Source of the DNA: Paracoccus sp. UBA889
Lineage (GTDB): Bacteria > Pseudomonadota > Alphaproteobacteria > Rhodobacterales > Rhodobacteraceae
Assembly (NCBI RefSeq): GCF_002294185.1
Contig: NZ_DBFD01000050.1
Length of the DNA stretch: 64,000 bases
Strand: one strand, 5' to 3'
In this document: in pieces, positions 3,088 through 17,069 of the stretch
Layout: every line of letters starts with the position of its first letter
Position numbering within the stretch: the first letter of the stretch is position 1
Translations under genes and position numbers: made by a program
The notes under the pieces: model-generated
Databases searched by the model: none
Seen by the model: only the letters and a program-made list of their open reading frames with translations
Told to the model about the DNA's origin: nothing

Positions 3088-4311
3088 TCAACCTGCCAGC
3101 CAGTCCATATAGGCCTGCGTGCCGCCGTTCCGGGCGGCGGCCGCGGCGGCCTTGGCGTCGATCGCGGCCGCCGCCGCGCCATCGCTCAGCCCCGCGACCA
3201 GGATATCGCGCACCATCCGGGCCTGACCCTGCATCAGGTTGCAGGGATCCAGCTGGAAATAGCCCTGCTCGACCTCGTGTCCGCGCACGATCAGCGGCGG
3301 ATCCTGCCGACCCAGGATCTCGGCGAATTGCGCGGCGCTGGCCCCCGCGCGTGCCGGATCGACCCAGACCTGCAACCGCTCCAGCGGGTTTCCGGTAGGG
3401 TCGGGAATGCGGACCGGGGTGATGCCCGGCAGACCTTCGATGGCGGTCTTCCACATGTCCAGCGCGCGGGTTTCCTCGGCCCGGATGGCGTCGTGATCGC
3501 GTTCCATCCACTGCGCCATCGCCTCGATGGCGCCGGCGATGCTTTCCTTGCCGATCTTCATGCCGCGGCCGATGCCGATATTCTGCAGATAGGCCGCGCG
3601 GATCAGATCCCTGCGCCCCGCCACGATCCCCGAGGTCGGCCCGCCCATGAACTTGTGGCCCGAATAGATGGCGATATCGGCACCCCCGGCCAGAAATCCC
3701 GTCAGATCATATTCCGAGGCCGCGTCCACGATCACCGGAACGCCCCTGGCATGGCAGATGGCCGCGAATGTCTCCAACGGGATCATCCCGTAATCCACCA
3801 CATGATGCGACACGACATACAGCGCCGCGGCGCAACCCTCCAGCGCGGCATCCAGCTGGTAATCCTTGGCCAGCGTCGATTGCCCGACGATCCGCGTGGC
3901 GCCCCCCGCCAGTGCGATGGCCTGGCTGACCGGCGCGCCATATTCGCACAGATGGCCCATCTGCACCGCGACGCCGTTGCCGGGCCCCGGATCGCCCGGC
4001 AGCGCCTCGGCGCGCGCGGGATCCAGCCCGGTGATGCAGCCCGCGACCGCCAGTGTGATCCCGGCGCTGGCCGAGGCGGTCAGGAACCCGGCCTCGGCGC
4101 CGGTCAATTGCGCGATCACCTCGGATGCGCGGGCCTGCATCTCGTGGATACGGACGAAGCGGGGCATCGCGGCGGCGGTCGCCTCGGCCACCCGGCGGGT
4201 GGCGATCGACCCGCCCAGTGACGTCATCGTACCCGACGTGTTGATCACCCGCGCAAAGCCCTGCGCGTCATGCCAAGACCAATCGACGGGGTATCCGGTA
4301 TTTCCAAGCAT
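3088..4311 (-). CDS. SelA-like / DgaE-family PLP-dependent ammonia-lyase
   Basis: VINTSGTMTSLGG, VIVDAASE, PLP-lysine motif YSGHKFMGGPTSG, GRGMKIGKE. Start re-picked at ATG 4311 behind AAAGG. Confidence 0.85.
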   Translation of the reverse strand: MLGNTGYPVDWSWHDAQGFARVINTSGTMTSLGGSIATRRVAEATAAAMPRFVRIHEMQARASEVIAQLTGAEAGFLTASASAGITLAVAGCITGLDPARAEALPGDPGPGNGVAVQMGHLCEYGAPVSQAIALAGGATRIVGQSTLAKDYQLDAALEGCAAALYVVSHHVVDYGMIPLETFAAICHARGVPVIVDAASEYDLTGFLAGGADIAIYSGHKFMGGPTSGIVAGRRDLIRAAYLQNIGIGRGMKIGKESIAGAIEAMAQWMERDHDAIRAEETRALDMWKTAIEGLPGITPVRIPDPTGNPLERLQVWVDPARAGASAAQFAEILGRQDPPLIVRGHEVEQGYFQLDPCNLMQGQARMVRDILVAGLSDGAAAAAIDAKAAAAAARNGGTQAYMDWLAG

Positions 4312-4336
4312 GGGAGAGCCTTTCTGCGCTTGAGAA

Positions 4337-4353
4337 GATTTCCATAATTGCGT
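4337..4353. promoter_or_regulatory. Candidate IclR operator, copy 1 (GATTTCCATAATTGCGT)
   Basis: Lies in the divergent SelA-like/IclR intergenic; near-identical 17-mer at 12157-12173. Confidence 0.5.
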
Positions 4354-4369
4354 AGGTTGCATCAAAACG

Positions 4370-5179
4370 ATGGAAACGACGATGAGCGACGATCCCGGCC
4401 CGGCCGACATCCAGACGACGCGGCGCAGCCGGACCAGCGGCATCGACCGTTCGCTTCAGATCCTCGATATCCTGACCGAGCGGCACCAGCCGATGAGCGC
4501 CTATGACCTGGCCAGGGCGACGGGCGCGCCGCCCTCGACCGTCTACAAGCTGATCGACGAGTTGACCGAACGGAACATGCTGTCGCGCAGCGCCGATGGC
4601 CGCGCCTGGCTGGGGCCGCGCCTGATGCGGTACGGCCTGGCCTACCGCGCCCGCGTCAACGCCTTCAACGAGGCCGAGCGCGCCATGTTCGCGCTGAACG
4701 AACGGGTGGCCGAAATGGTCCAGATCTGCGCCCGCGACGAGGGGATGATGCAGGTCGTGGCCATGGCCGAGGGTTCGGGGCCGTTCCGCGTCACCTCGGA
4801 TGTGGGCACGCGGGTGCCGCTGAACTGGACCGCCTCGGGGCGGCTGCTGATCGGCCATCTGCCCGATGCCGAACGGCTGGCGGTCTTTGCCGAATGTGCG
4901 CGTCCTTCCAATACCGGGCTGGCCGAGACCGATCCGGCGATCCTGGCCGACCTGTCCCGGCGCGATTTCCTGGACGGGCTGTCGGTGCAGATCGACACCT
5001 CCGAAGATCAGGTGGCCTGCATCGCCGCGCCCGTGCGCGGACAGGACGGCACCTGCCAGCTGACCCTGTCGGTGGTCATGCCCAAGCACCGCGTTCCCGA
5101 CAAGTTCGACCTTGTGGCCGAGGCCGTGCGCGAGGCGGCGCGATCGGTGGAAAAGGCGCTTGGGCTGCATCACCGCTGA
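4370..5179 (+). CDS. IclR family transcriptional regulator
   Basis: N-terminal HTH (GIDRSLQILDIL...STVYKL) and IclR effector domain (TASGRLLIG, CIAAPV). Alternative start at 4382. Confidence 0.9.
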   Translation: METTMSDDPGPADIQTTRRSRTSGIDRSLQILDILTERHQPMSAYDLARATGAPPSTVYKLIDELTERNMLSRSADGRAWLGPRLMRYGLAYRARVNAFNEAERAMFALNERVAEMVQICARDEGMMQVVAMAEGSGPFRVTSDVGTRVPLNWTASGRLLIGHLPDAERLAVFAECARPSNTGLAETDPAILADLSRRDFLDGLSVQIDTSEDQVACIAAPVRGQDGTCQLTLSVVMPKHRVPDKFDLVAEAVREAARSVEKALGLHHR

Positions 5180-5661
5180 TCCGCGACCTCGAAGATCGCC
5201 TCGATCTCGACCGGGATGCGGTTGGGCAGCGATCCCACGCCAAAGGCCGACCGGGCATGGATGCCGGTTTCGCCGAACACCTCGGCCAGCAGGTCGGAGG
5301 CGCCGTCGATGACGAAGGGATGGCGTTCGAAATCGGAATCGGCATTGACCATGCCCAACAGCTTGACCACGCCGCCCACCCGGTCCAGCGAACCAAGCGC
5401 ATCGCGCAGCGCCGACAGGATGTTGATCGCGACCAGCCGGGCATGATCACGAGCCTCCTCGGCGCTGATCTCGGCTCCGACCTTGCCGCGGATCAGGCTG
5501 CCATCGGCACGGACCGGCCCCTGGCCCGAGACATAGATCATCCCCCCCGAAACCCGGACATTGCGGAATGATCCGATGGGTTTCGGCGCGGCGTCGGGCA
5601 GGGTGATCCCGATCCGGACCAGCCGCGTCTCAGGCGTGGTTGGCAGCGACGTGATGTCCAT
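5170..5661 (-). CDS. RidA/YjgF/UK114 family (Rid) enamine/imine deaminase
   Basis: IYVSGQGP, GKVG, VKLLGMVN, HARSAFGV, PVEIEAIF; the conserved Arg is present. Confidence 0.88.
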   Translation of the reverse strand: MDITSLPTTPETRLVRIGITLPDAAPKPIGSFRNVRVSGGMIYVSGQGPVRADGSLIRGKVGAEISAEEARDHARLVAINILSALRDALGSLDRVGGVVKLLGMVNADSDFERHPFVIDGASDLLAEVFGETGIHARSAFGVGSLPNRIPVEIEAIFEVADQR

Positions 5662-6613
5662 AAAGATCCTCGGCTCTCTTGCAATGGCTCTGGTGATCGG
5701 GCGTGACCGGATGCGCCGTGGGCGCGCCCTGGGCGCAGATTTCGGCGGCATGGGGGCATCGGGTGCGGAAGACGCAGCCCGATGGCGGGTTCAGCGGGCT
5801 GGGAATATCGCCCTGAAGCGGCGTCCGGCCCCGTGCCGCGCGCGGATCGGGCAGCGGAATGGCCGAATTCAGCGCACGGGTATAGGGATGGGCCGACGCC
5901 TTGTGGATCGCGGCGGCGGGGCCGATCTCCATCAGCCGGCCCAGATACAGCACCGCGACCTGATCGCAGAGATAATTCACCACCGACAGGTCATGGGCGA
6001 TGAAAAGCATCGTAAGGTTCCGCTTCTGCCGCAGATCCAGCAACAGGTTCAGCACCTGCGCCTGGATCGACACGTCCAGCGCCGAGACGCTTTCATCGGC
6101 GACGATGAATTCCGGCTCCAGCGCCAGGGCGCGGGCGATGCCGATCCGCTGCCGCTGCCCGCCCGAGAAGGCATGAGGATAGCGGTTCATGTGATCGGCG
6201 CTCAGCCCGACCTCCTCCAGCAGCGCGGCCACGCGATCGCGGCGCTCGGCGCGGGTGCCGATGCCATGGGCGCGCAGGCCCTCGGCCACCAGATCGCCCA
6301 CCTTCAGGCGCGGGTTCAGCGATGACATCGGATCCTGAAAGATGATCTGCATCCGCCGCCGCATGTCGCGCATCTTGGCGTCGGGCAGGGTGGTGATGTC
6401 GGTGCCGTCAAAGTGGATCTGCCCGGCCGATGGTTGGACCAGCCGCAGCAGCGTGCGGCCCAGCGTGGTCTTGCCCGAGCCGCTTTCGCCCACCAGCCCG
6501 GTGATCGAGCCGCGCGGAATGTCGAAACTGACATCCTCGACCGCGTGAACGATGCCGGACGGCGTGTGGAACCGCCTGGTCAGGTTGCGGATCCGGATCA
6601 GCGCGTCGCTCAT
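5630..6613 (-). CDS. Peptide/nickel-type ABC ATP-binding protein (OppF-like)
   Basis: GESGSGKTT, FSGGQRQRIGIARAL, C-terminal oligo_HPY domain (HPYT...GCVFRTRC). Confidence 0.92.
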   Translation of the reverse strand: MSDALIRIRNLTRRFHTPSGIVHAVEDVSFDIPRGSITGLVGESGSGKTTLGRTLLRLVQPSAGQIHFDGTDITTLPDAKMRDMRRRMQIIFQDPMSSLNPRLKVGDLVAEGLRAHGIGTRAERRDRVAALLEEVGLSADHMNRYPHAFSGGQRQRIGIARALALEPEFIVADESVSALDVSIQAQVLNLLLDLRQKRNLTMLFIAHDLSVVNYLCDQVAVLYLGRLMEIGPAAAIHKASAHPYTRALNSAIPLPDPRAARGRTPLQGDIPSPLNPPSGCVFRTRCPHAAEICAQGAPTAHPVTPDHQSHCKRAEDLYGHHVAANHA

Positions 6614-7614
6614 GCCGGCACCGCCCGTTCCAGAATGCAGGCCGCCAGATGGCCCGGCGCCTTTTCCCGCAGCGCCACCGGCGCGCGGCATTCGGCCCGC
6701 GCATGGGGACAGCGCGGCGCGAAGGCGCAGCCTGGCGGCAGGTCGGTCAGCGCCGGCACCGTGCCCGCAATCGGGACCAGCCTTTCGCCAGCGGCCAGCC
6801 CCTCGCGCGGGATCGAGTTCAGCAGACCCTGCGAATAGGGATGGCGGGTGTCGTCGAACAGGTCCATCACGCCGGCCTGTTCGACCACCGCGCCCGCATA
6901 CATGACCGCCACGTCATCGGCCATTTCCGCGACCACACCCATGTCATGGGTGATGAACAGGATCGACATGCCCAGATCCTTCTGCAGCCGCCGCATCAGG
7001 TCCAGGATCTGCGCCTGGATGGTCACGTCCAGGGCCGTCGTCGGCTCGTCCGCGATCAGCAGGGCCGGGTTGCAGATCAGGCCCATGGCGATCATCACCC
7101 GCTGCCGCATCCCGCCCGACAATTCGTGCGGATAGGCATCGACGCGGGCGGCCGCGCCGGGAATTTCGACCAGTTCCAGCATCTCGATCACCCGCTTGCG
7201 GCGCTGCGCCGCCGGCAGGGTCTCGTGCAGGAACAGCATCTCGCCGATCTGGTCGCCGATGGTGAAAAGCGGGTTCAGCGAGGACATCGGCTCCTGGAAG
7301 ATCATCGAGATGCCGGGGCCGCGCAGCCGCCGGAACCCCGCCGCGTCCAGACCCGCCAGATCGGTCAGCGATCCGTCGCGGCCGCGAAATTCCAGCCGCC
7401 CCGACCGCACCCGCCCCGAAGGCGGCAGCAGTCCCATCAGCGCCAGCGAGGTGAGCGACTTGCCCGATCCGCTTTCGCCCACCAGCGCCAGCGTCCGGCC
7501 CCGTTCAAGGCTGAAGCTGACATCGCGCAGCGCGGTCACGGCGGCGCGGCCGCGCCCGAAACTGACGCCAAGGTTCTGAACCGACAGGATCGTGTCGCTG
7601 CTGGCATCGCTCAT
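6610..7614 (-). CDS. Peptide/nickel-type ABC ATP-binding protein (OppD-like)
   Basis: [36 protein letters not shown]. Confidence 0.92.
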
Positions 7615-7618
7615 GGTT

Positions 7619-8743
7619 CTAGCCCTCTGGCGGCAGGCGGCGCGCGGCGGGTTGCGCGTCGCAGCCCAGCACGGTCATGCGCGGCTCGAACATCCGTTCC
7701 ATCACCATGTGGTTGCCCTGGCTGTCCATCGCGTCGACCCGGCTGTCCTCCAGATCGAAGACGGTGAAATCGGCCCGCGTCCCCGGCGCCAGGCCGTCGC
7801 GCCCCGACAGGCCCAGGAAGCCGCGCGGGGCCTGGGTCACGGCGCGGATGCATTCGTCGAAGGGCAGGCCCACCGCCAGCAACTTGGCGATGGTCGTGGC
7901 CATGTCATGGACCGGTCTGGCCATCGAATGGGCGTGCAGATCGGTCGAGATCGAGAACGGCCGCAGCCCGTCGGCCATCGATTCCCGCGCGGTCCTGAAG
8001 TTGAATGACGCGCCGCCATGCCCGATATCCATCAGGATGCCGCGTTCGGCCAGATCCTGCGCCATCCGGAACAGCGCCTCCGTGTCGCGGATCGAGCCTG
8101 CGGGCTTGCCGTTGAAGCAATGGGTCACGATATCGCCGGGCGTCAGGATCGCGAACACCTCGTCGATCAGCGGGGGCGGCTCGCCGACATGGACCATCAG
8201 CGGCAGGTTGGTCATCTCGGCCACCCGCTTGGCGATCCTGGCGGGGGTGATGCCCCAACTTCCCACGATCACGCCCGAGGCGCGCACCTTGATGCCGCAG
8301 ATCACGTCGCGATTGGCCTCGATCACCGCCAGCGTCCGGTCGATGTCGATGGACCGCCAGTCGATCAGCTCGGGCACCCGATTGCAGGCCACCAGCCCGA
8401 TCGAGCCGATGTTCAGGAACGCCTTGATCGTCTCGCTGGCCGGCTCGATCACATATTCGCGCAACCCGTGAAAGCTGGCCTCGCCTGCCGAACCGGCATC
8501 GGCCATCGCCGTCACGCCGGTGGGCCGCCCGGCATCGGAGGCGCGGATCGAGATATCGGTGCCGCCATGCCACACATGGACATGCAGGTCGCACCAGCCG
8601 GGCGACAGCCAGGCGCCCTTCAGGTCCAGCACCTTTGCGCCGCCCACGGGGGCACTGGCGACAAGGCCGTCATCACCCACGAAGATCTCGTCCGGGGCGG
8701 CGTCGAAGCCGGTGGCGCGGAAATTGGTCAGTTTCAGGGCCAA
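7619..8743 (-). CDS. Amidohydrolase/deacetylase family metallohydrolase (COG3964, dihydroorotase-like)
   Basis: DLHVH metal motif, GVTAMADAGSAG, GIKVRAS (carbamylated Lys), MVHVGEPP, THCFNGK, DIGHGGASF, STDLH. TTG start behind AAGGAG. Confidence 0.85.
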   Translation of the reverse strand: MALKLTNFRATGFDAAPDEIFVGDDGLVASAPVGGAKVLDLKGAWLSPGWCDLHVHVWHGGTDISIRASDAGRPTGVTAMADAGSAGEASFHGLREYVIEPASETIKAFLNIGSIGLVACNRVPELIDWRSIDIDRTLAVIEANRDVICGIKVRASGVIVGSWGITPARIAKRVAEMTNLPLMVHVGEPPPLIDEVFAILTPGDIVTHCFNGKPAGSIRDTEALFRMAQDLAERGILMDIGHGGASFNFRTARESMADGLRPFSISTDLHAHSMARPVHDMATTIAKLLAVGLPFDECIRAVTQAPRGFLGLSGRDGLAPGTRADFTVFDLEDSRVDAMDSQGNHMVMERMFEPRMTVLGCDAQPAARRLPPEG

Positions 8744-8744
8744 A

Positions 8745-9605
8745 TCAGGTCTCCTTGGCAAGTCTGGGGTCCAGCGCATCGCGCAAGCCGTCGCCGACGA
8801 TCTGCAACGACAGGACCGACAGCGCGATGGCCGCACCCGGAAAGAGGATCAGGAAGAAGGCAGTGTCGATATAGCGGCGGCCCTCGTTCACCATGATGCC
8901 CCATGTGGGGATCCTGGGATCGACGCCGACGCCCAGAAAGGACAACCCGGCCTCGGCCAGCATTGCATAGGCGAAGATGAAGGTGGCCTGCACCAGGATG
9001 GGCGACATGATGTTGCGCAGCACATGCGTGACCATGATCCTGGGCGTCCGGGTGCCCAGGGCGCGGGCGGCCTCGACATAGGGCAGTTCGCGAATGACCA
9101 GCGTCGAGGCACGCACGATCCGCGCGATGCGCGGCGCATAGACGACCGACAGCGCCAGGATCACGTTGACCATCGTGCCGCCGAAGATCGCCACCAGCGA
9201 CAGCGCCAGCAGGATGTCGGGAAAGGCCATCATCGCGTCGATCAGCCGCGACAGCGGCGTGTCCAGACGCCGGAAAAAGCCCGCGGCCAGCCCGATCACG
9301 ATACCCACCGCCGACGAGATGACGGCGACGCCGAGGCCGATCCCCAGCGAGGTCTGCCCCGCGACCAGCAAGCGGCCCAGCAGGTCGCGCCCGAAGGCAT
9401 CCGCGCCCAGCCAGTATTCGGCGCCCGGCGGCGTCAGCCGCTTGCGCACCGACATGCCGCCGATCTCGGTCACGCCCAGCGTCGGCAGCAGGAAACAGGC
9501 GGCGACGATCAGCACGAAGACGACCAGCGCCACCACCACCGCCGGCCGCTGGAACAGCAGCTTGCGGAACGACGGCGCGGCGATTGCAGGGGATGCGGCG
9601 GCCAT
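8745..9605 (-). CDS. Peptide-type ABC permease (OppC-like)
   Basis: WLGADAFGRDLLGR, EAA-loop YVEAARALG, LAEAGLSFLG. Confidence 0.92.
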   Translation of the reverse strand: MAAASPAIAAPSFRKLLFQRPAVVVALVVFVLIVAACFLLPTLGVTEIGGMSVRKRLTPPGAEYWLGADAFGRDLLGRLLVAGQTSLGIGLGVAVISSAVGIVIGLAAGFFRRLDTPLSRLIDAMMAFPDILLALSLVAIFGGTMVNVILALSVVYAPRIARIVRASTLVIRELPYVEAARALGTRTPRIMVTHVLRNIMSPILVQATFIFAYAMLAEAGLSFLGVGVDPRIPTWGIMVNEGRRYIDTAFFLILFPGAAIALSVLSLQIVGDGLRDALDPRLAKET

Positions 9606-10546
9606 CAGTATTTCACCCTCTTGTCGACGACCAGATACAGAAGATCGGTCAGCAGGTTGACCAGCACATAAAGCCCCGCGACCACGATCAGCGTGCCCTG
9701 GATGACCGGGTAATCGCGCCGCAGCACCGCGTTCACGACCAGGTTGCCCATGCCGGGAAGGTTGAAGACCCGTTCGGTCACCACCGCCCCGCTGACCAGC
9801 AGCGCGAAGGTCAGGCCGATCACGGTGATGATCGGGATGCCCGCGTTCTTCAGCGCATGGCGCAGCACGACGCGGCGTTCGGTCATGCCCTTGGCGCGGG
9901 CGGTGCGCACGTAATCCTCGCCCAGGATGTCCAGCATCGAGGCGCGGGTAAAGCGCAGGATCAGCGCCGAATTGGTGATGCCCAGCGTGATCGAGGGCAG
10001 GACCAGATGCCACATCCGCGTGCCGAAGCCCGCGCCGGCGCCGCCATAGCCCGAGGCCGGGAACCAGCCCAGATCGGTCGCCAGATAGCGCTGGAAGATC
10101 AGACCGGTCAGGAAGCTGGGGACCGAGGCCGCCAGCATCGCCGTGGTGATCGAGCCCTGGTCCAGCACCGATCCGCGCCGATAGGCGGCCCAGATGCCGA
10201 TGGGCGTGGCGATGACCAGCGCCACCAGCAGCGAAAACAGTGCCAGAAAGGCCGTCGGCTCGGCCCGGCTGGCCAGAACCTGCGTCACCGGCTGGTTGAA
10301 GAACAGCGATTCACCGAGGTTGCCTTGCAGCGCGTTGCCCACGAAGGTCGCGTATTGCACCAGGATCGGCTGATCCAGACCCAGACGCCTGCGCAGCGCC
10401 ACCACCTCGTCGGGCGTGGCATCGGGGCCCAGCAGCAGCGAGGCCGGATCGCCCGGCGCAAGGCGCACCAGCACGAAGGCGATGGTCAGCACCAGGAAGA
10501 TGACGACGACCATGCCGATCAGGCGGCGAAGAAGATAGCGACTCAT
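9605..10546 (-). CDS. Peptide-type ABC permease (OppB-like)
   Basis: APGDPA, LGLDQP, DYVRTARAKG, RHALKNA, RDYPVIQG. Confidence 0.92.
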   Translation of the reverse strand: MSRYLLRRLIGMVVVIFLVLTIAFVLVRLAPGDPASLLLGPDATPDEVVALRRRLGLDQPILVQYATFVGNALQGNLGESLFFNQPVTQVLASRAEPTAFLALFSLLVALVIATPIGIWAAYRRGSVLDQGSITTAMLAASVPSFLTGLIFQRYLATDLGWFPASGYGGAGAGFGTRMWHLVLPSITLGITNSALILRFTRASMLDILGEDYVRTARAKGMTERRVVLRHALKNAGIPIITVIGLTFALLVSGAVVTERVFNLPGMGNLVVNAVLRRDYPVIQGTLIVVAGLYVLVNLLTDLLYLVVDKRVKY

Positions 10547-10635
10547 GGGGCGATCTCGCTTGCGGGCGGTGTTCGGGGGCCGGGCTTTCCGGGGCGCGCG
10601 GGCCGCGACCGCAAGGATCGCGACCCGTTTCGACC

Positions 10636-12144
10636 CTATTCGGCGGTGCTGGCGTTCCAGAAGGCCGGCCAGGGCGAGGGCCTGACACCGGACAGGTTTT
10701 TCGCCTTGCCCTGCAGCGCGTTGAAATTGCCGACCTTGATCAGACCCACGTCCTCGTAGGCGACCTTCTGCAATTCGGCATAGATTGCCTTGCGCTTTTC
10801 GGGATCGGTCTCGCGGGTGAAGCGGTCGAGGATCTCGTTCTTCTTGGGATTGTTCCAGCCCTCGCGCGCGGTGGCGAAGAAGGACGAGGTCAGCGCCGGT
10901 TCCGGCAGGAAGGGCGAATGGGTGATATACATGTCCCACAGGTCGGGGTTGTCGCGATTCTGCGCCAGCGTGGCCCAGTCAACCACGTCCATCTGCACGG
11001 TAAAGCCGGCCATCTCCAGCGCCATCCGCGCCACTTCGGCCATCTGGTAATGGAACTCGTATTGCCGCGAGGTCAGGATCCGCAGCGGCGTGCCGTCATA
11101 GCCGGCCTCTTTCAGATATGCGGCCGCCTTTTCCTGATCGTTGATGTTGTAGAGTTCGGTCCCCGCGTCGTTGCGCCATGTCCAGCCCTCGGGATAGAAG
11201 GCGCCGTCGGTCTGGAAGAATTTCTCGTCCCCGAAGGCCGCGAACAGCATGTCGTCGAAGGGCAGCGCGGCCTGCACCGCGCGACGGATGTTCAGATCGG
11301 TCATCAGCCCCTTCTTGTGATTGACCGCGAAGATCGGCCAGCCGAAGGGTTCCAGCAGCACCGGTTCGGCCACCTCGGATTTCGCGATGCGGTCATAGGC
11401 CTCGGTGGACAGGCTGTCGGCATAGTCGAACTGTCCCGACAGCAGCCCCTCGACCCGCGTGCTGGTGTCGGGCACGGGCACGAAGCGGATCTCGTCGGGG
11501 ATCTGCTGCCGCTTTCCCGCCGCTTCGCCGGGTTGGGTATAGCCGTCGAAGCGGACCAGTTGCGTGTACTGGTCGGGCTCATAGGCCTGAAGCTTGTAGG
11601 GGCCGGTGCCGATGGGCTTGTCGATCGTGTCGGCGATGATCTCCTCGGGATAGATCACGGCGGCGGAATTCGAGAAGGCCAGCAGCGACAGCAACGGCGA
11701 ATAGGGTTCGTTCAGGGTGATGGTGATCTCGTTCGGGCCGCCGGCCTTGATGCTGTCGATCTTGTCGGCGATGCCCTGACCGCGGCTGGCGACCTTTTCC
11801 CAGCGTTGCAGCGAGGCCAGCACATCGGCACTGTCCATCGCGGAACCGTCCTGGAACGACACCCCCTTGCGCAGCGGGATCGTGTAGGTCAGCCCATCTT
11901 CGCTGATCGTGGGCATGTCTGCGGCCAGCAGCGGCACCACGGCCCAGTTGTCATCGAAGGTGTACAGCGTTTCCATGAAATGCTGCGTCACGATGCTGAC
12001 GACATCCTTGGTGGACATCATCGGGTCGAACGTGTCCGGATCGCCGACGATGGCGACCTCGACGGTTCCCTGCGCGGCGACCGGCGCCGCGGCCGCGAAG
12101 GCAAGCACGGCCGAGCCGGCCAGGCAGACGGCACGAAATGTCAT
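10636..12144 (-). CDS. ABC substrate-binding protein, family 5
   Basis: Signal peptide MTFRAV...AAQ, ETLY, TYTIPLRKGVSFQDG, IGTGPYKL. Start re-picked at 12144 behind GGGAG. Confidence 0.9.
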   Translation of the reverse strand: MTFRAVCLAGSAVLAFAAAAPVAAQGTVEVAIVGDPDTFDPMMSTKDVVSIVTQHFMETLYTFDDNWAVVPLLAADMPTISEDGLTYTIPLRKGVSFQDGSAMDSADVLASLQRWEKVASRGQGIADKIDSIKAGGPNEITITLNEPYSPLLSLLAFSNSAAVIYPEEIIADTIDKPIGTGPYKLQAYEPDQYTQLVRFDGYTQPGEAAGKRQQIPDEIRFVPVPDTSTRVEGLLSGQFDYADSLSTEAYDRIAKSEVAEPVLLEPFGWPIFAVNHKKGLMTDLNIRRAVQAALPFDDMLFAAFGDEKFFQTDGAFYPEGWTWRNDAGTELYNINDQEKAAAYLKEAGYDGTPLRILTSRQYEFHYQMAEVARMALEMAGFTVQMDVVDWATLAQNRDNPDLWDMYITHSPFLPEPALTSSFFATAREGWNNPKKNEILDRFTRETDPEKRKAIYAELQKVAYEDVGLIKVGNFNALQGKAKNLSGVRPSPWPAFWNASTAE

Positions 12145-12156
12145 GTGAAGCTCCCT

Positions 12157-12241
12157 GATTTCCATTATTGTGTTATGTAATCCGCAGAAATGAGTAGAGA
12201 ATCACTCTACATAGAAGTCAACAATCATTCATTATTGTGTA
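12157..12241. promoter_or_regulatory. AT-rich promoter/operator region of the ABC operon
   Basis: GATTTCCATTATTGTGT (12157-12173), partial copy CATTCATTATTGTGTA (12226-12241), and palindrome GTAGAG-N5-CTCTAC (12194-12210). Confidence 0.5.
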
Positions 12242-12272
12242 CAGTAGGGGTCCGGGCGGCGCGACGCAGGCA

Positions 12273-13436
12273 TCAGATCGCCGCGCGGATTGCATCCAGA
12301 AGGGCCTGCTGCGCCCGTGTCGGCTGCCATCCGCTGCGCAGGGTCAGGCCGATGGGGCGCGGCACCGGCAGGCCGGGAAACGGAAGTTCCGCCACGATAC
12401 CGCGCTCGATCTCGCGCGCGGCCTGGGCTTTCGACACGCAGGCCAGATGGCGGCCGTCGCCGACCATCTCGCGCATCAGGATGACCGATCCGGTCTCGAT
12501 GATGCTGGCCGGCGGATCGAGATTCGAGTCGCGAAACAGCGCCTCGAACAGATCGCGGGTCGGCGTGCCGCGCCGTGCGACAAGCCAGGGCCGACATCGC
12601 AGGGCCGACAGCGGCGCGGGATTGTGGATCAGCGGATCATCCGGCCCGGCAAGGATAGCCAGCACGTCATCGAACAAGCGTTCCTGCACCACATCCCCGA
12701 CCGGAAGCGGCTGACGCAGCGCGCCGATGATCAGGTCGATCTCGCCCCGGCGAAGCCCCGCCAGAAGATCGCCATAGATCCCGTCCATGATGCGGATCGG
12801 CTGCCGGGGGCGGTCCTGGCGAAACCGGGCCAGCGCGCGCGGCAGGACATGGGCGCGCGACAGGGGCAGCGCGCCGATGACGATCCGACCCACCTCGCGG
12901 CCTTCCAGTTCCGCAAGCTCGGCCACGGCCTGATCCAGCTCCGCAAAGGCCAGTCGCGCCGCCAGCGCCAGCGCCGATGCCGGCCGCGAGGGCGCCACGC
13001 CGACCGCGCTGCGCTGGAACAGCGCCCGCCCCGCAGCAGCCTCGATCGCGGTGATCGCCCGGTGCAGGGTGGGCTGCGCGATCCCCAGCCGGTAGGCCGC
13101 CAGCGTGAAATTCTGCGTCTCGACGGCGGCGATCAGCGCGGTCAGCTGCGCCCGCGTCGCGGTCGTCCGAAGCCGCGGCGCGATGTCGGACATCGCCATG
13201 TCCAGACGTGCCAGCGCGCGGGCCGCGCGATGCTGGAAAAGGCGCCCCGCCTCGGTCGGGAACAGGCCCTGCCGGGTGCGCCGGAACAGGGCCGTGCCGG
13301 CCTGCGATTCAAGCTTGGCGATGGCCTGCGTCACGGCCGGTTGCGACACCAGCCCCGCCGCTGCGGCCCGCGTGACCGAGCCGCCCTCTGCGACCGCCAG
13401 GAAGACCCTCAGGTGGCGGAGGTTGCCGACAGGCAT
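12273..13436 (-). CDS. LysR family regulator with tandem N-terminal HTH domains (GalR/LigR-like)
   Basis: HTH1 (LRHLRVFLAVAEGGSVTRAA...SQPAVTQAI) and HTH2 (FTLAAYRLGIAQPTLHRAI), then a PBP2 domain (IVIGALP). Confidence 0.88.
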   Translation of the reverse strand: MPVGNLRHLRVFLAVAEGGSVTRAAAAGLVSQPAVTQAIAKLESQAGTALFRRTRQGLFPTEAGRLFQHRAARALARLDMAMSDIAPRLRTTATRAQLTALIAAVETQNFTLAAYRLGIAQPTLHRAITAIEAAAGRALFQRSAVGVAPSRPASALALAARLAFAELDQAVAELAELEGREVGRIVIGALPLSRAHVLPRALARFRQDRPRQPIRIMDGIYGDLLAGLRRGEIDLIIGALRQPLPVGDVVQERLFDDVLAILAGPDDPLIHNPAPLSALRCRPWLVARRGTPTRDLFEALFRDSNLDPPASIIETGSVILMREMVGDGRHLACVSKAQAAREIERGIVAELPFPGLPVPRPIGLTLRSGWQPTRAQQALLDAIRAAI

Positions 13437-14293
13437 AGCGCCTCTTCGATCATCGCCAGGCGCTGCATCAGGTCGCCCTCGCGCTCGTGCAGGCCCAGAT
13501 CGCCGATCCTTTGCTGCCATGCGACCGTGGCGCGGGCGAGATCCGCGGGCAATCCCAGCCCTTCGACGGTCTTGGCGACCTCGCGCATCTCGGCGGCGCG
13601 GCGCAGCCCGTGCTGCATCATCCGTTCGGTATTGTAGGCGGCCTTCGCCGCCCAGTCCGTGGCCGGATCGGAGGCTTGCAGCGAATCCAGCACATCCTGC
13701 AGAACGCCCGCCCGTCGTGCCGACAGAAGGCATTCCGCGGCCAGCGCCTCCATCCCCTTGATCATCACCGAGCGGATCATCTTGATCGCCGAGGCCGAAC
13801 CGATGCGGGGGCCGCGCCAGCGATACTGCATGTTCATGCGATCCAGGAAGTCCAGCGCCGTTTCGGGGCCCGCGATCAACAGCGGCGTGCGGTGCAACCG
13901 GGGTCGGATCGGCGCCATGATCGCCATATCGACATAGGTTGCGCCGGCATCGCCGATCATCGTCGCCGCCTCGCGCTTGCTGTCGGGGGCGCAGGAATTT
14001 CCGTCATACCAGACGCTTGCCGCCGCCAGATGCGGTGCCGCCTGCCGGGCGGCCTCGACCGCCTGATCGGCGGTGACGAGGCACAGGACATGCCGCGCGC
14101 CCGCCAGCACGACAGGGGCCGGCCCGCAGGCGACATCCAGATCCGTCGCGGCATCGCGAAGGGGCTGCGCCTGGGCGCCATCCAGCTTGGTGTCCCAGGC
14201 CGCGATGGCACCGGCAAAGCCCTCGTCACGCCAGCCCTTCGCGACCGCGCGGCCGGCCTCTCCGAAGCCGATGAAGGCGATTTCTGCGCTCAT
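13409..14293 (-). CDS. NAD(P)-dependent oxidoreductase, 6PGDH/3-hydroxyisobutyrate-DH-like, with DUF1932-type C-terminus
   Basis: Rossmann motif IAFIGFGEAG, DGNSCAP, ASAIKMIRSVMIKG, HGLRRAAEMREV. Confidence 0.8.
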   Translation of the reverse strand: MSAEIAFIGFGEAGRAVAKGWRDEGFAGAIAAWDTKLDGAQAQPLRDAATDLDVACGPAPVVLAGARHVLCLVTADQAVEAARQAAPHLAAASVWYDGNSCAPDSKREAATMIGDAGATYVDMAIMAPIRPRLHRTPLLIAGPETALDFLDRMNMQYRWRGPRIGSASAIKMIRSVMIKGMEALAAECLLSARRAGVLQDVLDSLQASDPATDWAAKAAYNTERMMQHGLRRAAEMREVAKTVEGLGLPADLARATVAWQQRIGDLGLHEREGDLMQRLAMIEEALCLSATSAT

Positions 14294-14354
14294 GTCGATT
14301 TCCTTTCGAAACCTGGCGGAATATTGCCCCGCCGGGCCGCGCCCGCCAACCCGT

Positions 14355-14371
14355 CATAGCCGGAACTTATG
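14355..14371. promoter_or_regulatory. LysR-type T-N11-A dyad (CATA-N9-TATG)
   Basis: CATAGCCGGAACTTATG in the divergent oxidoreductase/galB intergenic. Confidence 0.55.
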
Positions 14372-14449
14372 CATTGGCGTGGATTTCTGAATTGCCTGCG
14401 GTGGGGCCGGGATGCGATCTGGTCGGCAGCACAACTCAGGGAGAATGGA

Positions 14450-15181
14450 ATGCCGGAGCCCGGAACCGCGCTGGTCTTCAGCGCCCATGCCGCGGATTTC
14501 GTCTGGCGCTGCGGCGGCGCCATCGCGCTGCATTCCCGGATGGGGTATCAGGTGACGGTGGCCTGCCTGTCCTTTGGCGAACGCGGCGAAAGCGCGCGGC
14601 TGTGGAAGGACGGCAAGGCGCTGGACCAGATCAAGGCAATCCGCCGGGCCGAGGCCGAGGCGGCGGCCGAGGTGCTGGGCGTGCACCGGCTGGAATGTTT
14701 CGATCTGGGCGATTACCCGCTGCATCTGGACCGCGAGGACAAGTTCCGGCTGGTCGACCTGATTCGCGAGGTGCAGCCGCGCTTCATGCTGAGCCACAGC
14801 CAGCATGATCCCTACAACACCGACCACATGCAGACGACCCAGGTGGTGCTGGAATGTCGCATGGTCGCGCAGGCCTGGGGTCACGATCCCGGCCAGAAGG
14901 TGCTGGGCGCACCGCAGCTTTACCTGTTCGAGCCGCACCAGACCGAACAGATGGGCTGGAAACCCGACACCTTCCTCGACATCACCCCGGTCTGGGACCA
15001 GAAGCGGGCCGCGATGGAACAGATGAACGGACAGGCCCATCTGTGGGAATATTACACCCGCGTGGCGCAGCAGCGCGCCAACCATTTCAAGCGCAATTCC
15101 GGCGGTCAGTCGGGCGGGCGCGATTGCCGATATGCCGAAGGATTCCAGTCGATCTTTCCCCGAACCGTGGACGAATTGTGA
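14450..15181 (+). CDS. galB: 4-oxalomesaconate hydratase (PIG-L family)
   Basis: SAHAADFVWRCGGAIALH, SFGERGESA, DPYNTDH, FEPHQTEQ, HLWEYYTRVA match P. putida GalB as I recall it. Confidence 0.92.
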   Translation: MPEPGTALVFSAHAADFVWRCGGAIALHSRMGYQVTVACLSFGERGESARLWKDGKALDQIKAIRRAEAEAAAEVLGVHRLECFDLGDYPLHLDREDKFRLVDLIREVQPRFMLSHSQHDPYNTDHMQTTQVVLECRMVAQAWGHDPGQKVLGAPQLYLFEPHQTEQMGWKPDTFLDITPVWDQKRAAMEQMNGQAHLWEYYTRVAQQRANHFKRNSGGQSGGRDCRYAEGFQSIFPRTVDEL

Positions 15182-15252
15182 TGCCTGAGGCCCCGATCAT
15201 CGGCAGGGTGGCGATCGAAGCCATGCTGCGGAAACCCTGGAAAGGCTGATTC

Positions 15253-15924
15253 ATGGCTGTTGTCGTCCAGAACATCGTCCGCGCCGACGCGGAAGTCATC
15301 GCCGGTCTGTCCGAGGTCGGCGTCGCGACCGTTCACGAGGCCCAGGGCCGTCGTGGCTGTCTGTCCAGCCGGATGCGGCCGATCTATCCCGGCGCCCGCA
15401 TCGCCGGCAGTGCCGTCACCATCAGCGCGCCGCCCGGCGACAACTGGATGGTCCATGTCGCCATCGAGCAGTTGCGCGACGGCGACATCCTGGTTCTTGC
15501 CCCCACCTCGCCCTGCGAGGACGGCTATTTCGGCGATCTGCTGGCGACCAGCGCGATGGCGCGGGGCTGCCGGGGGCTGGTGATCGACGCCGGCGTCCGC
15601 GATGTCCGCGACCTGACGGAGATGCGATTCCCGGTCTGGTCGCGGGCCATCAGCGCGCAGGGCACCGTGAAGGCAACGCCGGGATCGGTGAACGTGCCCA
15701 TCACCTGCGGCAATCAGGCGATCGAGGCGGGCGATGTGATCGTGGCCGATGACGACGGCGTCTGCGTCATCCGCCGCGCCGAAGCCCTGACCGTGCTGGC
15801 CGCTGCCCGCAAGCGGATCGAGGCCGAGGAGGCCAAGCGGCAGCGACTTGCCGCCGGCGAGCTTGGCCTCGACATCGATGACATGCGCGGCAGGCTGGAG
15901 GCGAAGGGGCTGCGCTACATCTGA
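15253..15924 (+). CDS. galC: 4-carboxy-4-hydroxy-2-oxoadipate (CHA/HMG) aldolase
   Basis: [50 protein letters not shown] (LigK/GalC family). Confidence 0.93.
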
Positions 15925-16010
15925 GGGGCGGGGGCGGTCCGGCCGCGGCGGGCCGAGCGCGGCCGCTTGGCCAAGAAAGGGTATTTGGGCAACGAAGAAG
16001 GGCTGAAAGG

Positions 16011-17069
16011 ATGCGCGACGAGGACGGGATTGCCTGCCTGTGGATGCGCGGCGGCACATCGAAGGGGGCGTATTTCCTGAAGGACGACCTGCCCGCCGAT
16101 CCGGCCGGCCGCGACGCCTTGCTGCTGTCGATCATGGGCAGCCCCGATCCGCGACAGATCGACGGGATCGGGGGCGCGGACCCGCTGACCTCGAAGGTCG
16201 CGGTCCTGTCGCGGCCCAGCCGTGCGGATGCGGATGTGGATTACCTGTTCCTTCAGGTCTTCGTCGACCGGGCCCTGGTCAGCGCCGCGCAGGGTTGCGG
16301 CAATATCCTGGCCGGGGTCGGCCCGGCCGCGATCGAACGAGGCCTGGTCCGCGTCGCAGGCGCGCAGACACCGGTTCGCATCCACATGGTCAATACCGGC
16401 GAGATTGCGACGGCCATCGTTCAGACCCCCGATGGCAGGGTCAGCTATGCGGGCGATTGCAGCATCGACGGTGTGCCGGGGCAGCACGCCCCGATCCTGC
16501 TGATGTTCGACGACGTGTCGGGGTCCATGTGCGGTGCCCTGCTGCCCAGCGGCCAGGCGGTCGATGTGATCGACGGGATCGAATGCACGCTGATCGACAA
16601 CGGCATGCCCTGCGTGATCCTGCGCGCCGATGCGGTCGGCCGGACCGGATGCGAGGATCGCGAGGCGCTGGATGCCGATGCCGAATTGAAGACGCGGCTG
16701 GAGGCGATCCGGCTGCAGGCGGGGCCGATGATGAACCTGGGCGATGTGCGCGAGAAATCGGTGCCCAAGATGACGCTGGTTTCGGCCCCGCAGGCAGGCG
16801 GCGCCATCTCGACCCGCAGTTTCATTCCGCATCGCTGCCATGCCTCGATCGGGGTGTTCGCGGCCGTCAGCGTGGCGACGGCCTGCACCTTGCCCGGATC
16901 GCCCGCCGCATCCGTCGCGCGGATGCCGCAGGGCGATGGAGTCGCCGTCGAACATCCGGGTGGCGCGGCCCAGCTGCGGCTGGAGCGCGACGATCAGGGC
17001 CGCGTAACCCGCGCCGGCGCGATGCGCACCGCGCGCAAGCTGTTCGACGGGCATGTCTTTCCCGCCTGA
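16011..17069 (+). CDS. galD: 4-oxalomesaconate tautomerase (PrpF family)
   Basis: MRGGTSKG, GSPDPRQIDGIGG, CGNILAGVGP, IDNGMP, SFIPHRCHASIGV, VEHP. Confidence 0.92.
   Translation: MRDEDGIACLWMRGGTSKGAYFLKDDLPADPAGRDALLLSIMGSPDPRQIDGIGGADPLTSKVAVLSRPSRADADVDYLFLQVFVDRALVSAAQGCGNILAGVGPAAIERGLVRVAGAQTPVRIHMVNTGEIATAIVQTPDGRVSYAGDCSIDGVPGQHAPILLMFDDVSGSMCGALLPSGQAVDVIDGIECTLIDNGMPCVILRADAVGRTGCEDREALDADAELKTRLEAIRLQAGPMMNLGDVREKSVPKMTLVSAPQAGGAISTRSFIPHRCHASIGVFAAVSVATACTLPGSPAASVARMPQGDGVAVEHPGGAAQLRLERDDQGRVTRAGAMRTARKLFDGHVFPA

Follow-up and report, generated by a model that had tools for sequence, protein, structure and literature searches.

A window of 64,000 nucleotides (nt) from a marine Paracoccus, part of contig C41 of a 3.25-Mb assembly, contains between positions 3088 and 12241 a group of nine genes, for which existing annotations offer only 'aminotransferase class V-fold', 'dihydroorotase-like' and 'peptide ABC transporter'. 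These genes encode the five components of an ATP-binding cassette (ABC) importer, a binuclear-metal amidohydrolase of the COG3964 family, a protein of the Rid family, a pyridoxal 5'-phosphate (PLP) dependent lyase related to DgaE of Salmonella, and an IclR-family regulator. Which compound is taken up and degraded by this set of proteins is the question raised by the locus. A literature search covering Atu3266/COG3964, the structures 8T7J, 8JE0, 8WZY, and 2OGJ, combinations of the gene names, and glucosaminate fitness turned up nothing on the cluster. By a modest balance of probability it is read here as an accessory catabolic route for an N-acylated 2-amino-2-deoxy-aldonic acid, most likely N-acetyl-D-glucosaminate (GlcNAc1A) or a close analogue.

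In the proposed route the N-acyl compound would be imported in unphosphorylated form by a family-5 binding protein and a Dpp-type ABC transporter. The amidohydrolase, which is of the Atu3266 type, would then remove the N-acyl group and free the (2R)-amine, and the DgaE-related lyase would eliminate the C3 hydroxyl to release an enamine or imine, which a Rid1-type protein would hydrolyse to 2-keto-3-deoxygluconate (KDG) and ammonia. KdgK and the 2-keto-3-deoxy-6-phosphogluconate (KDPG) aldolase Eda, encoded elsewhere, would convert KDG to pyruvate and glyceraldehyde-3-phosphate. The IclR protein is predicted to repress both promoters via a shared ATGGAAA-type box until the inducer appears. From the gene content, coupling, and co-conservation, the shared box, the catalytic residues, and the variant neighbourhoods described below we infer all of the chemical steps, which acyl group is removed, and whether the kinase acts before or after the lyase.

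The Gene Cluster and Its Conservation

Gene identities were taken from Pfam and NCBIfam scans, after which start codons were refined, and all nine genes were present in the window. Seven of them, from the binding protein to Rid, lie on the minus strand in a single run with successive gaps of +89, -1, +1, +4, -4, and -32 nt. The SBP_bac_5 binding protein, which is of the Dpp/Opp/opine type (10636..12144; 502 amino acids (aa); PF00496, E 7e-65), carries a Sec signal peptide, MTFRAVCLAGSAVLAFAAAAPVAA followed by QG, and its relatives in the PDB are all distant (best E 3e-33, with GsiB, AgaA, and NikA among the matches). It is followed by a DppB/OppB-like permease (9605..10546; 313 aa; PF00528 and PF19300, NCBIfam Opp/Gsi/Nik permease models) and a DppC/OppC-like permease (8745..9605; 286 aa; PF00528), the start of which overlaps the stop of the first. 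Then come the amidohydrolase, with a TTG start after an AAGGAG site (7619..8743), and two ATPases with the domains PF00005 and PF08352, one DppD/OppD-like (6610..7614; 334 aa) and one DppF/OppF-like (5630..6613; 327 aa), joined by an ATGA overlap. The Rid gene, predicted to encode an imine/enamine deaminase (5170..5661; 163 aa), ends the run. With a family-5 binding protein, two BPD_transp_1 permeases, and two ATPases bearing an oligo_HPY tail the importer has the composition of a Dpp/Opp (PepT) system. On the plus strand the IclR gene (4370..5179; 269 aa) is convergent with the Rid gene, overlapping it by 10 nt, and divergent from the lyase gene on the minus strand (3088..4311), from which it is separated by 58 base pairs (bp). 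Bases 12145-12241, upstream of the binding protein gene, are non-coding promoter sequence.

A scan of species-representative genomes with an alignment of lyase homologues yielded at least 577 matching stretches, the cluster being present in at least 577 species-level genomes, and 80 loci were obtained in this way. About 60 of the 80 have kept all nine genes, and these come from Rhodobacterales, from Hyphomicrobiales (Microvirga, Brucella/Ochrobactrum, Ensifer, Neorhizobium, Martelella), from Pseudohongiella, and from Ca. Thioglobus. Most of them begin with the binding protein gene, continue with the genes of both permeases, the amidohydrolase, both ATPases, Rid, and, where it lies there, IclR, and end with the lyase gene. 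All-against-all clustering of every open reading frame (ORF) in the 80 loci found no further gene family conserved with the nine. Among 301 evenly sampled Rhodobacterales genomes eight contained the lyase and seven an orthologue of the amidohydrolase; all seven fall within the eight lyase carriers, with the amidohydrolase always at most about 5 kb from the lyase. In two Rhizobium genomes the amidohydrolase gene is missing from the cluster but is found, accompanied by an IclR gene, at a distance of 45 kb on the contig that carries the cluster. The gene grouping is far beyond chance.

A sequence-only reading of this stretch had described the ABC, amidohydrolase, and Rid genes as one tightly coupled run, which the gaps of -32 to +89 nt confirm, and the lyase gene as divergent from the IclR gene, as is indeed found. 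Its assignment of the amidohydrolase to the COG3964/Atu3266 type was borne out by 55% sequence identity and the same gene neighbourhood, and its description of the lyase as SelA/DgaE-like also stands, though the lyase scores under the DgaE family cut-offs. It had named a lack of co-conservation as a ground for abandoning the idea of a common pathway; the synteny and the distribution of the amidohydrolase carriers described above speak for co-conservation.

The Carbon Skeleton of the Substrate

Information on the carbon skeleton is contained in variant neighbourhoods of the lyase gene. A PfkB kinase gene directly adjoins it in eight of the 80 loci (L009, L013, L027, L033, L041, L043, L078, and, with an incomplete copy where its contig ends, L019), in an orientation that varies between loci. 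These kinases score 257-292 bits with the KdgK model as compared to at most 90 bits with any other kinase model, and they match KdgK crystal structures. In all seven genomes checked the lyase-adjacent kinase gene is the only KdgK-like gene. In L078, which comes from Ca. Thioglobus, the lyase gene overlaps by 10 nt the gene of an aldolase of the KDPG/2-keto-4-hydroxyglutarate type (PF01081, 233 bits), and kinase and IclR genes are located just upstream of this pair. In L043 the genes of an M81 peptidase, the kinase, and a 7-bladed lactonase are all divergent from those of Rid and lyase.

The uptake systems vary as well. The lyase is found with a sugar-type ABC importer of the CUT2 class in L052 and of the CUT1 class in L047, and with polar-amino-acid ABC importers and no deacylase in L034, L061, L074, and L075. 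On the lyase tree these proteins are interspersed among the Dpp-linked ones, and nine context changes are needed to explain the distribution; judged from this tree, the same lyase has repeatedly been recombined with different uptake systems. As pairing with both sugar-type and amino-acid-type importers suggests, its substrate seems to have the features of a sugar as well as those of an amino acid. A compound handled in both ways, the product of which needs KdgK and KDPG aldolase, would be a 2-amino-2-deoxy-hexonate such as D-glucosaminate. The Paracoccus genome has one KdgK-like gene (C17:1597-2475, near a contig end) and one Eda gene (C75), both outside the cluster, so that the route could be completed.

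As a separate observation, locus L047, from a metagenome-assembled genome (MAG) of the Rhodobacterales, has a DruA-like gene and an IS66 transposase gene between lyase and COG3964 amidohydrolase (11381-14169), and upstream of these the CUT1 importer, a second Amidohydro_1 enzyme, and a PALP enzyme. It represents a rearranged variant of the pathway.

The sequence-only reading had concluded from the lack of a kinase and a KDPG aldolase in the cluster that the substrate is probably not the one known from Salmonella. With a kinase gene adjoining the lyase gene in eight loci, an aldolase gene overlapping it in one, and both enzymes encoded elsewhere in the Paracoccus genome, this conclusion found no support. 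The remaining part of its scheme, import without phosphorylation followed by deacylation, beta-elimination, and hydrolysis by Rid, fits the co-conservation, the shared candidate operator, the catalytic lysine and histidine pair, the Rid arginine, and the loss of an arginine corresponding to Arg-346 of DgaE. The carbon skeleton is probably the same as in Salmonella, leading from glucosaminate to KDG or KDPG. What would probably differ is the N-acyl precursor, the uptake by an ABC importer, and a phosphorylation which comes after rather than before deamination.

The peptide-type transporter, the lack of a conserved downstream enzyme in most clusters, and the polar-amino-acid ABC importers adjoining related lyases may also be explained by a smaller substrate, in which a small beta-substituted D-amino acid (D-serine, D-threonine, or beta-hydroxy-aspartate, for example) is present as a dipeptide or in N-acylated form. 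Its degradation would end in pyruvate, 2-oxobutyrate, or oxaloacetate, for which no further dedicated enzymes are required, Rid proteins classically quench 2-aminoacrylate, and N-acetyl-D-serine is reportedly hydrolysed, if weakly, by Atu3266. Such a substrate leaves unexplained, however, why the sole KdgK-like kinase gene is repeatedly and in independent arrangements found beside the lyase gene, as well as the overlapping KDPG aldolase gene, the lactonase, and the sugar-type ABC importers. In addition, screens of standard N-acyl-amino-acid and dipeptide libraries with Atu3266 are said to have given no strong match. This explanation is considered unlikely.

The Amidohydrolase and a Probable Masked Precursor

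The amidohydrolase scored 374.4 bits with NF006689, passing the cut-off of 371, and matched the Atu3266 structure 2OGJ with an E value of 1e-133. Its HxH, Lys, His, His, and Asp metal-ligand motifs (DLHVHVW, KVRAS, MVHVGE, VTHCFNG, STDLH) are the same as in 2OGJ. Atu3266 in turn is 89% identical to the cluster amidohydrolase of the Neorhizobium locus L080 and 74-77% identical to those of L059, L072, L071, L055, and L066, a group comprising Ensifer, Phyllobacterium, Martelella, Ochrobactrum, and Brucella. Because Atu3266 so closely matches cluster members in Rhizobiales loci, the amidohydrolase of the window is the syntenic orthologue of Atu3266 and Oant2987.

COG3964 has been a target of structural genomics and enzyme function studies. 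To our knowledge only non-physiological ester substrates have ever been found for its members Atu3266, Oant2987, and EF0837, and we know of no physiological substrate reported for the Atu3266 family since 2013. In work attributed to Ornelas et al. 2013 (Biochemistry 52:228), Atu3266 and Oant2987 are said to hydrolyse N-acetyl-D-serine weakly, with acetyl-(R)-glycerate, acetyl-glycolate, and acetyl-(R)-mandelate being progressively better substrates, so that Atu3266 reportedly prefers the bulky mandelate over glycerate. The Atu3266 substrates known so far have the same 2R configuration as D-glucosaminate and N-acetyl-D-glucosaminate, the latter of which corresponds to N-acetyl-D-serine lengthened by a polyol chain. 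As the oxidised form of N-acetylglucosamine, GlcNAc1A arises naturally when chitin is cleaved oxidatively and through the action of sugar oxidases. The amidohydrolase is proposed to be an N-acyl-hexosaminate deacylase.

The deacylase is coupled to the Dpp-type importer as strictly as to the lyase, and it is missing where amino-acid or sugar importers feed the lyase. This pattern makes it most likely that the Dpp route delivers a masked, N-acylated form of the lyase substrate. The acyl group could be other than acetyl, or the ligand could be a larger conjugate.

In its stronger form the latter idea says that a larger hexosaminate conjugate is imported, such as chitobionic acid (GlcNAc-GlcNAc1A), an opine-like sugar-amino-acid adduct, or a compound with a longer N-acyl chain, and that the amidohydrolase cuts the respective linkage instead of releasing an acetyl group. 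The ligands of family-5 binding proteins are typically as large as a dipeptide or disaccharide, AgaA, which binds agropinic acid, is among the nearest solved relatives of the binding protein, and the reported preference of Atu3266 for mandelate points in the same direction. However, no glycosidase or second hydrolase is conserved with the cluster, and the same lyase works with monosaccharide-type and amino-acid-type importers. We rate a conjugate of this kind as improbable, slightly more so than a small D-amino-acid derivative.

The Lyase, the Rid Protein, and the Timing of Phosphorylation

The lyase matched Salmonella DgaE (7LC0) with an E value of 2e-66 and remained below the cut-offs of the two family models, with 274.9 bits for TIGR01437 (cut-off 385.3) and 268.9 bits for NF047797 (cut-off 600). 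For DgaE it has been proposed that lysine 213 binds PLP, Arg-226 the carboxylate, and Arg-301, Arg-332, and Arg-346 the 6-phosphate of the substrate (PMC9529869). The SGHK and SHH motifs of the lyase align with K213 and the proton-donor pair H162/H163 of this enzyme (DGL). Residues were compared between a clade made up of 82 lyases from the loci plus seven database homologues and 31 relatives outside it, namely Salmonella DgaE, seven proteins fused to the phosphocarrier HPr, 15 further members of the DgaE family from Actinobacteria and Firmicutes, and eight actinomycete proteins of the 8T7J type. The PLP lysine, His-162, His-163, Arg-301, and Arg-332 are essentially invariant in the 82 clade lyases. 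At the position of Arg-346, in contrast, a cysteine within the motif LDPCNL is found in all 82 locus lyases and in all seven database homologues (89/89), whereas the arginine is kept in 31/31 relatives outside the clade. Arg-301 and Arg-332 are invariant in every group and do not discriminate between them. The three-arginine phosphate cluster is incomplete in the lyase clade, with R301 and R332 present and R346 replaced by cysteine.

Arg-226, the proposed carboxylate binder, was dropped as a criterion because it varies in every group. The structure 8T7J was rejected as a model for the lyase clade; it has all three arginines but lacks His-162, and it belongs to a clade of actinomycete secondary-metabolism type. 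One member of this separate clade comes from Amycolatopsis sp. SANK 60206, and His-162 is often absent from the clade's proteins. Lyases of the DgaE family fused to an HPr phosphocarrier domain (PF00381) were observed in Streptomyces and Amycolatopsis (P0167, P0168, P0175, P0180, P0183, P0201, P0213).

In addition to the cysteine, members of the clade are extended at the C-terminus by about 35 conserved aa (window positions 3088-3200), a segment that is absent from DgaE and contains the invariant residues R394, N395, G396, Y401, and W404 of the 407-aa lyase. With the arginine gone, this extension might close off the active site instead. Judged from the alignment, the clade is defined by a single change, through which the proposed phosphate site has lost one of its cationic residues. 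This loss fits the import of an unphosphorylated substrate by an ABC transporter, with KdgK acting after the lyase, and the lyase is proposed to be a D-glucosaminate ammonia-lyase which acts on the unphosphorylated compound and yields KDG.

The same skeleton might also be degraded with the kinase acting earlier, a KdgK-like enzyme phosphorylating D-glucosaminate at C6 after import and deacylation. All clade members have R301 and R332 of the proposed phosphate cluster, the kinase encoded next to the lyase in eight loci could act before it, and the lyase-aldolase pair of L078 mirrors dgaE-dgaF. The two arginines, however, are shared by every group, and the position that does separate the groups has Arg-346 in 31/31 PTS-linked or other relatives (PTS, phosphotransferase system) versus cysteine in 89/89 clade members. 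A dedicated kinase for the substrate would be expected in most clusters but is seen in 10%, and the adjacent kinases best fit the KdgK model with the bit scores given above. Early phosphorylation is held to be improbable too, by a shade more than a larger conjugate.

The Rid protein scored 73.8 bits with PF14588 (cut-off 35; E 2e-20), and among PDB entries it is matched best by 3D01 and by PA0814 and ACIAD3089, two Rid1 proteins. Its HARSAFG motif aligns with HARAAVG of 3D01 and includes the arginine needed for deaminase activity, which, going by the RidA motif, is the equivalent of RidA Arg-105. Rid1 proteins are imine/enamine deaminases which are active in vitro and complement a ridA mutant, and the deaminase activity of Rid proteins requires the key arginine (PMC5619798).

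Several points weigh against a route from N-acetyl-D-glucosaminate via unphosphorylated D-glucosaminate. The best known substrates of Atu3266 are esters rather than amides. Family-5 Dpp-type transporters usually carry peptides, opines, and oligosaccharides, which argues for a ligand larger than a monomeric N-acetyl sugar acid. The kinase occurs in just 8/80 loci and the aldolase in 1/80. KdgK-like genes are present in 195/301 Rhodobacterales genomes and, at E<=1e-50, in 5/8 lyase carriers, which amounts to no phyletic enrichment. Of the phosphate site R301 and R332 are retained throughout the clade, and the roles of the DgaE residues are themselves uncertain, the substrate having been placed by manual docking (PMC9529869).

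Regulation and Spread of the Cluster

The IclR protein consists of an HTH_IclR domain and an IclR_C effector domain (PF09339, PF01614) and resembles BhcR, PcaR, and KdgR at the family level only. A 14-nt box, CAAT[T/A]ATGGAAATC, is common to both promoter regions. The two candidate operators in the window are CAATWATGGAAATC boxes, CAATTATGGAAATC at 4337..4350 on the minus strand, about 26 nt upstream of the lyase start codon, and CAATAATGGAAATC at 12157..12170 on the minus strand, 13 nt upstream of the start codon of the binding protein. Both are oriented with their genes and lie just upstream of the ribosome-binding sites. Even with 2 mismatches allowed, the window contains only these two sites, a count which is weak when taken alone since the pattern was derived from the same sites. 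In many other genomes a TATGGAAW box, which often forms an inverted repeat TCCAY-N4-ATGGA, precedes the lyase gene by 28-33 nt, and reverse-form WTTCCAYWATAA boxes occur upstream of the binding-protein gene. Because the boxes recur at both genes in other genomes, the shared candidate operator is independently supported. These observations fit a single IclR repressor which would control both transcription units through the candidate box. Nothing was found to favour the view that the nine genes are mere neighbours without a common pathway; it is contradicted by their translational coupling, the conserved synteny, the 7/7 co-occurrence, and the shared candidate operator, and its probability appears close to negligible.

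The spread of the cluster is patchy, the lyase being found in 2/19 sampled genomes of the genus, and the lyase tree cuts across taxonomy. Because of these two features the cluster looks like a horizontally mobile accessory unit. A 4-kb contig assigned to a MAG of Dehalococcoidia (L069) carries a lyase that groups closely with the alphaproteobacterial one of L075 on the tree; this contig is probably misbinned.

Neighbouring Genes

Next to the lyase gene, at positions 3-2939, lies an unrelated iron-uptake unit with genes for a FecCD permease, for an ABC ATPase, and for an FAD protein of the siderophore-interacting kind; these genes were rejected as cluster members as they are not conserved beside the cluster in other genomes. 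The far flank, beyond the binding-protein promoter, is occupied by a LysR regulator and a gallate-type lower pathway. The LysR, dehydrogenase, PIG-L, RraA-like, and PrpF genes found there (12273-17069) were rejected on the same grounds. The LysR gene, just upstream of the cluster (12273-13436, minus strand), encodes a protein of about 387 aa from an ATG at 13436 with an unusual duplicated architecture. Its long ORF has two DNA-binding HTH_1 helix-turn-helix domains in tandem (approximately residues 105-164 and 195-255, with a self-alignment score of 105), followed by one LysR substrate domain.

Comparison with Known Systems

In a wider sense, the clade with cysteine at position 346 might represent the missing, widespread gene for an ammonia-lyase of unphosphorylated D-glucosaminate, and together with the Atu3266-type deacylase it might give Alphaproteobacteria, and some Gammaproteobacteria of marine origin, a second and non-homologous way to degrade oxidised amino sugars (GlcNAc1A and related compounds). 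We give this idea not quite an even chance. If it is true, bacteria that are not chitinolytic could scavenge what is released when chitin or amino sugars are broken down oxidatively, and COG3964 would have its physiological substrate settled. Confirmation of the reading proposed here would add a second route of independent evolutionary origin and correct annotations in hundreds of genomes. Cysteine versus arginine at DgaE position 346 would then mark unphosphorylated versus phosphorylated substrates in the lyase family. The comparative evidence offers a concrete and testable candidate for the natural substrate of the Atu3266/COG3964 family and narrows an open annotation problem to a handful of direct assays.

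With the Salmonella DgaE system the cluster has in common a homologous lyase with the PLP lysine, His-162/His-163, R301, and R332, and in one orthologous cluster, L078, the coupling of the lyase gene to a KDPG aldolase gene. The PTS and DgaF operon context is not found, the Paracoccus cluster having an ABC importer and no PTS, and L078 being the only locus with the aldolase gene adjoining the lyase gene. Uptake by the PTS phosphorylates the substrate in Salmonella, whereas in Paracoccus it would enter unphosphorylated. The clade further differs by the cysteine at position 346, the added deacylase and Rid protein, and the C-terminal extension. As to Atu3266 and Oant2987, the likeness extends to the same nine-gene cluster in Rhizobiales and to identical metal-ligand motifs. 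Atu3266 differs in that it is known from ester substrates in vitro, whereas the N-acyl-hexosaminate assigned to the enzyme of the window is a new proposal.

The closest parallel in function is the Ong pathway of Pseudoalteromonas prydzensis, in which GlcNAc1A is degraded via the deacetylase OngB, the PLP deaminase OngC, the RidA protein OngD, and KdgK (PMC9537276, PMC12017989). OngB is D-aminoacylase-like and OngC is a D-amino-acid deaminase (PMC9537276), and the genes for deacetylase, deaminase, RidA, and kinase are each essential for growth on GlcNAc1A (PMC9537276; PMC12017989). In both systems, with the substrate of the Paracoccus cluster being the one suggested here, unphosphorylated GlcNAc1A would be deacetylated, deaminated by a PLP enzyme with the help of a Rid protein to KDG, and only then be phosphorylated by KdgK, and both are under a repressor, a role that is predicted for IclR in Paracoccus. 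The proteins are nevertheless different ones. According to published family descriptions, a COG3964 amidohydrolase takes the place of OngB, a SelA-fold lyase that of OngC, and a Rid1-like protein that of RidA. Uptake is by an SSS (solute:sodium symporter) transporter in the Ong pathway and by a Dpp-type ABC importer here, and the Paracoccus cluster has an IclR regulator and no kinase. By this analogy the cluster would be a non-homologous, functional counterpart of the Ong pathway.

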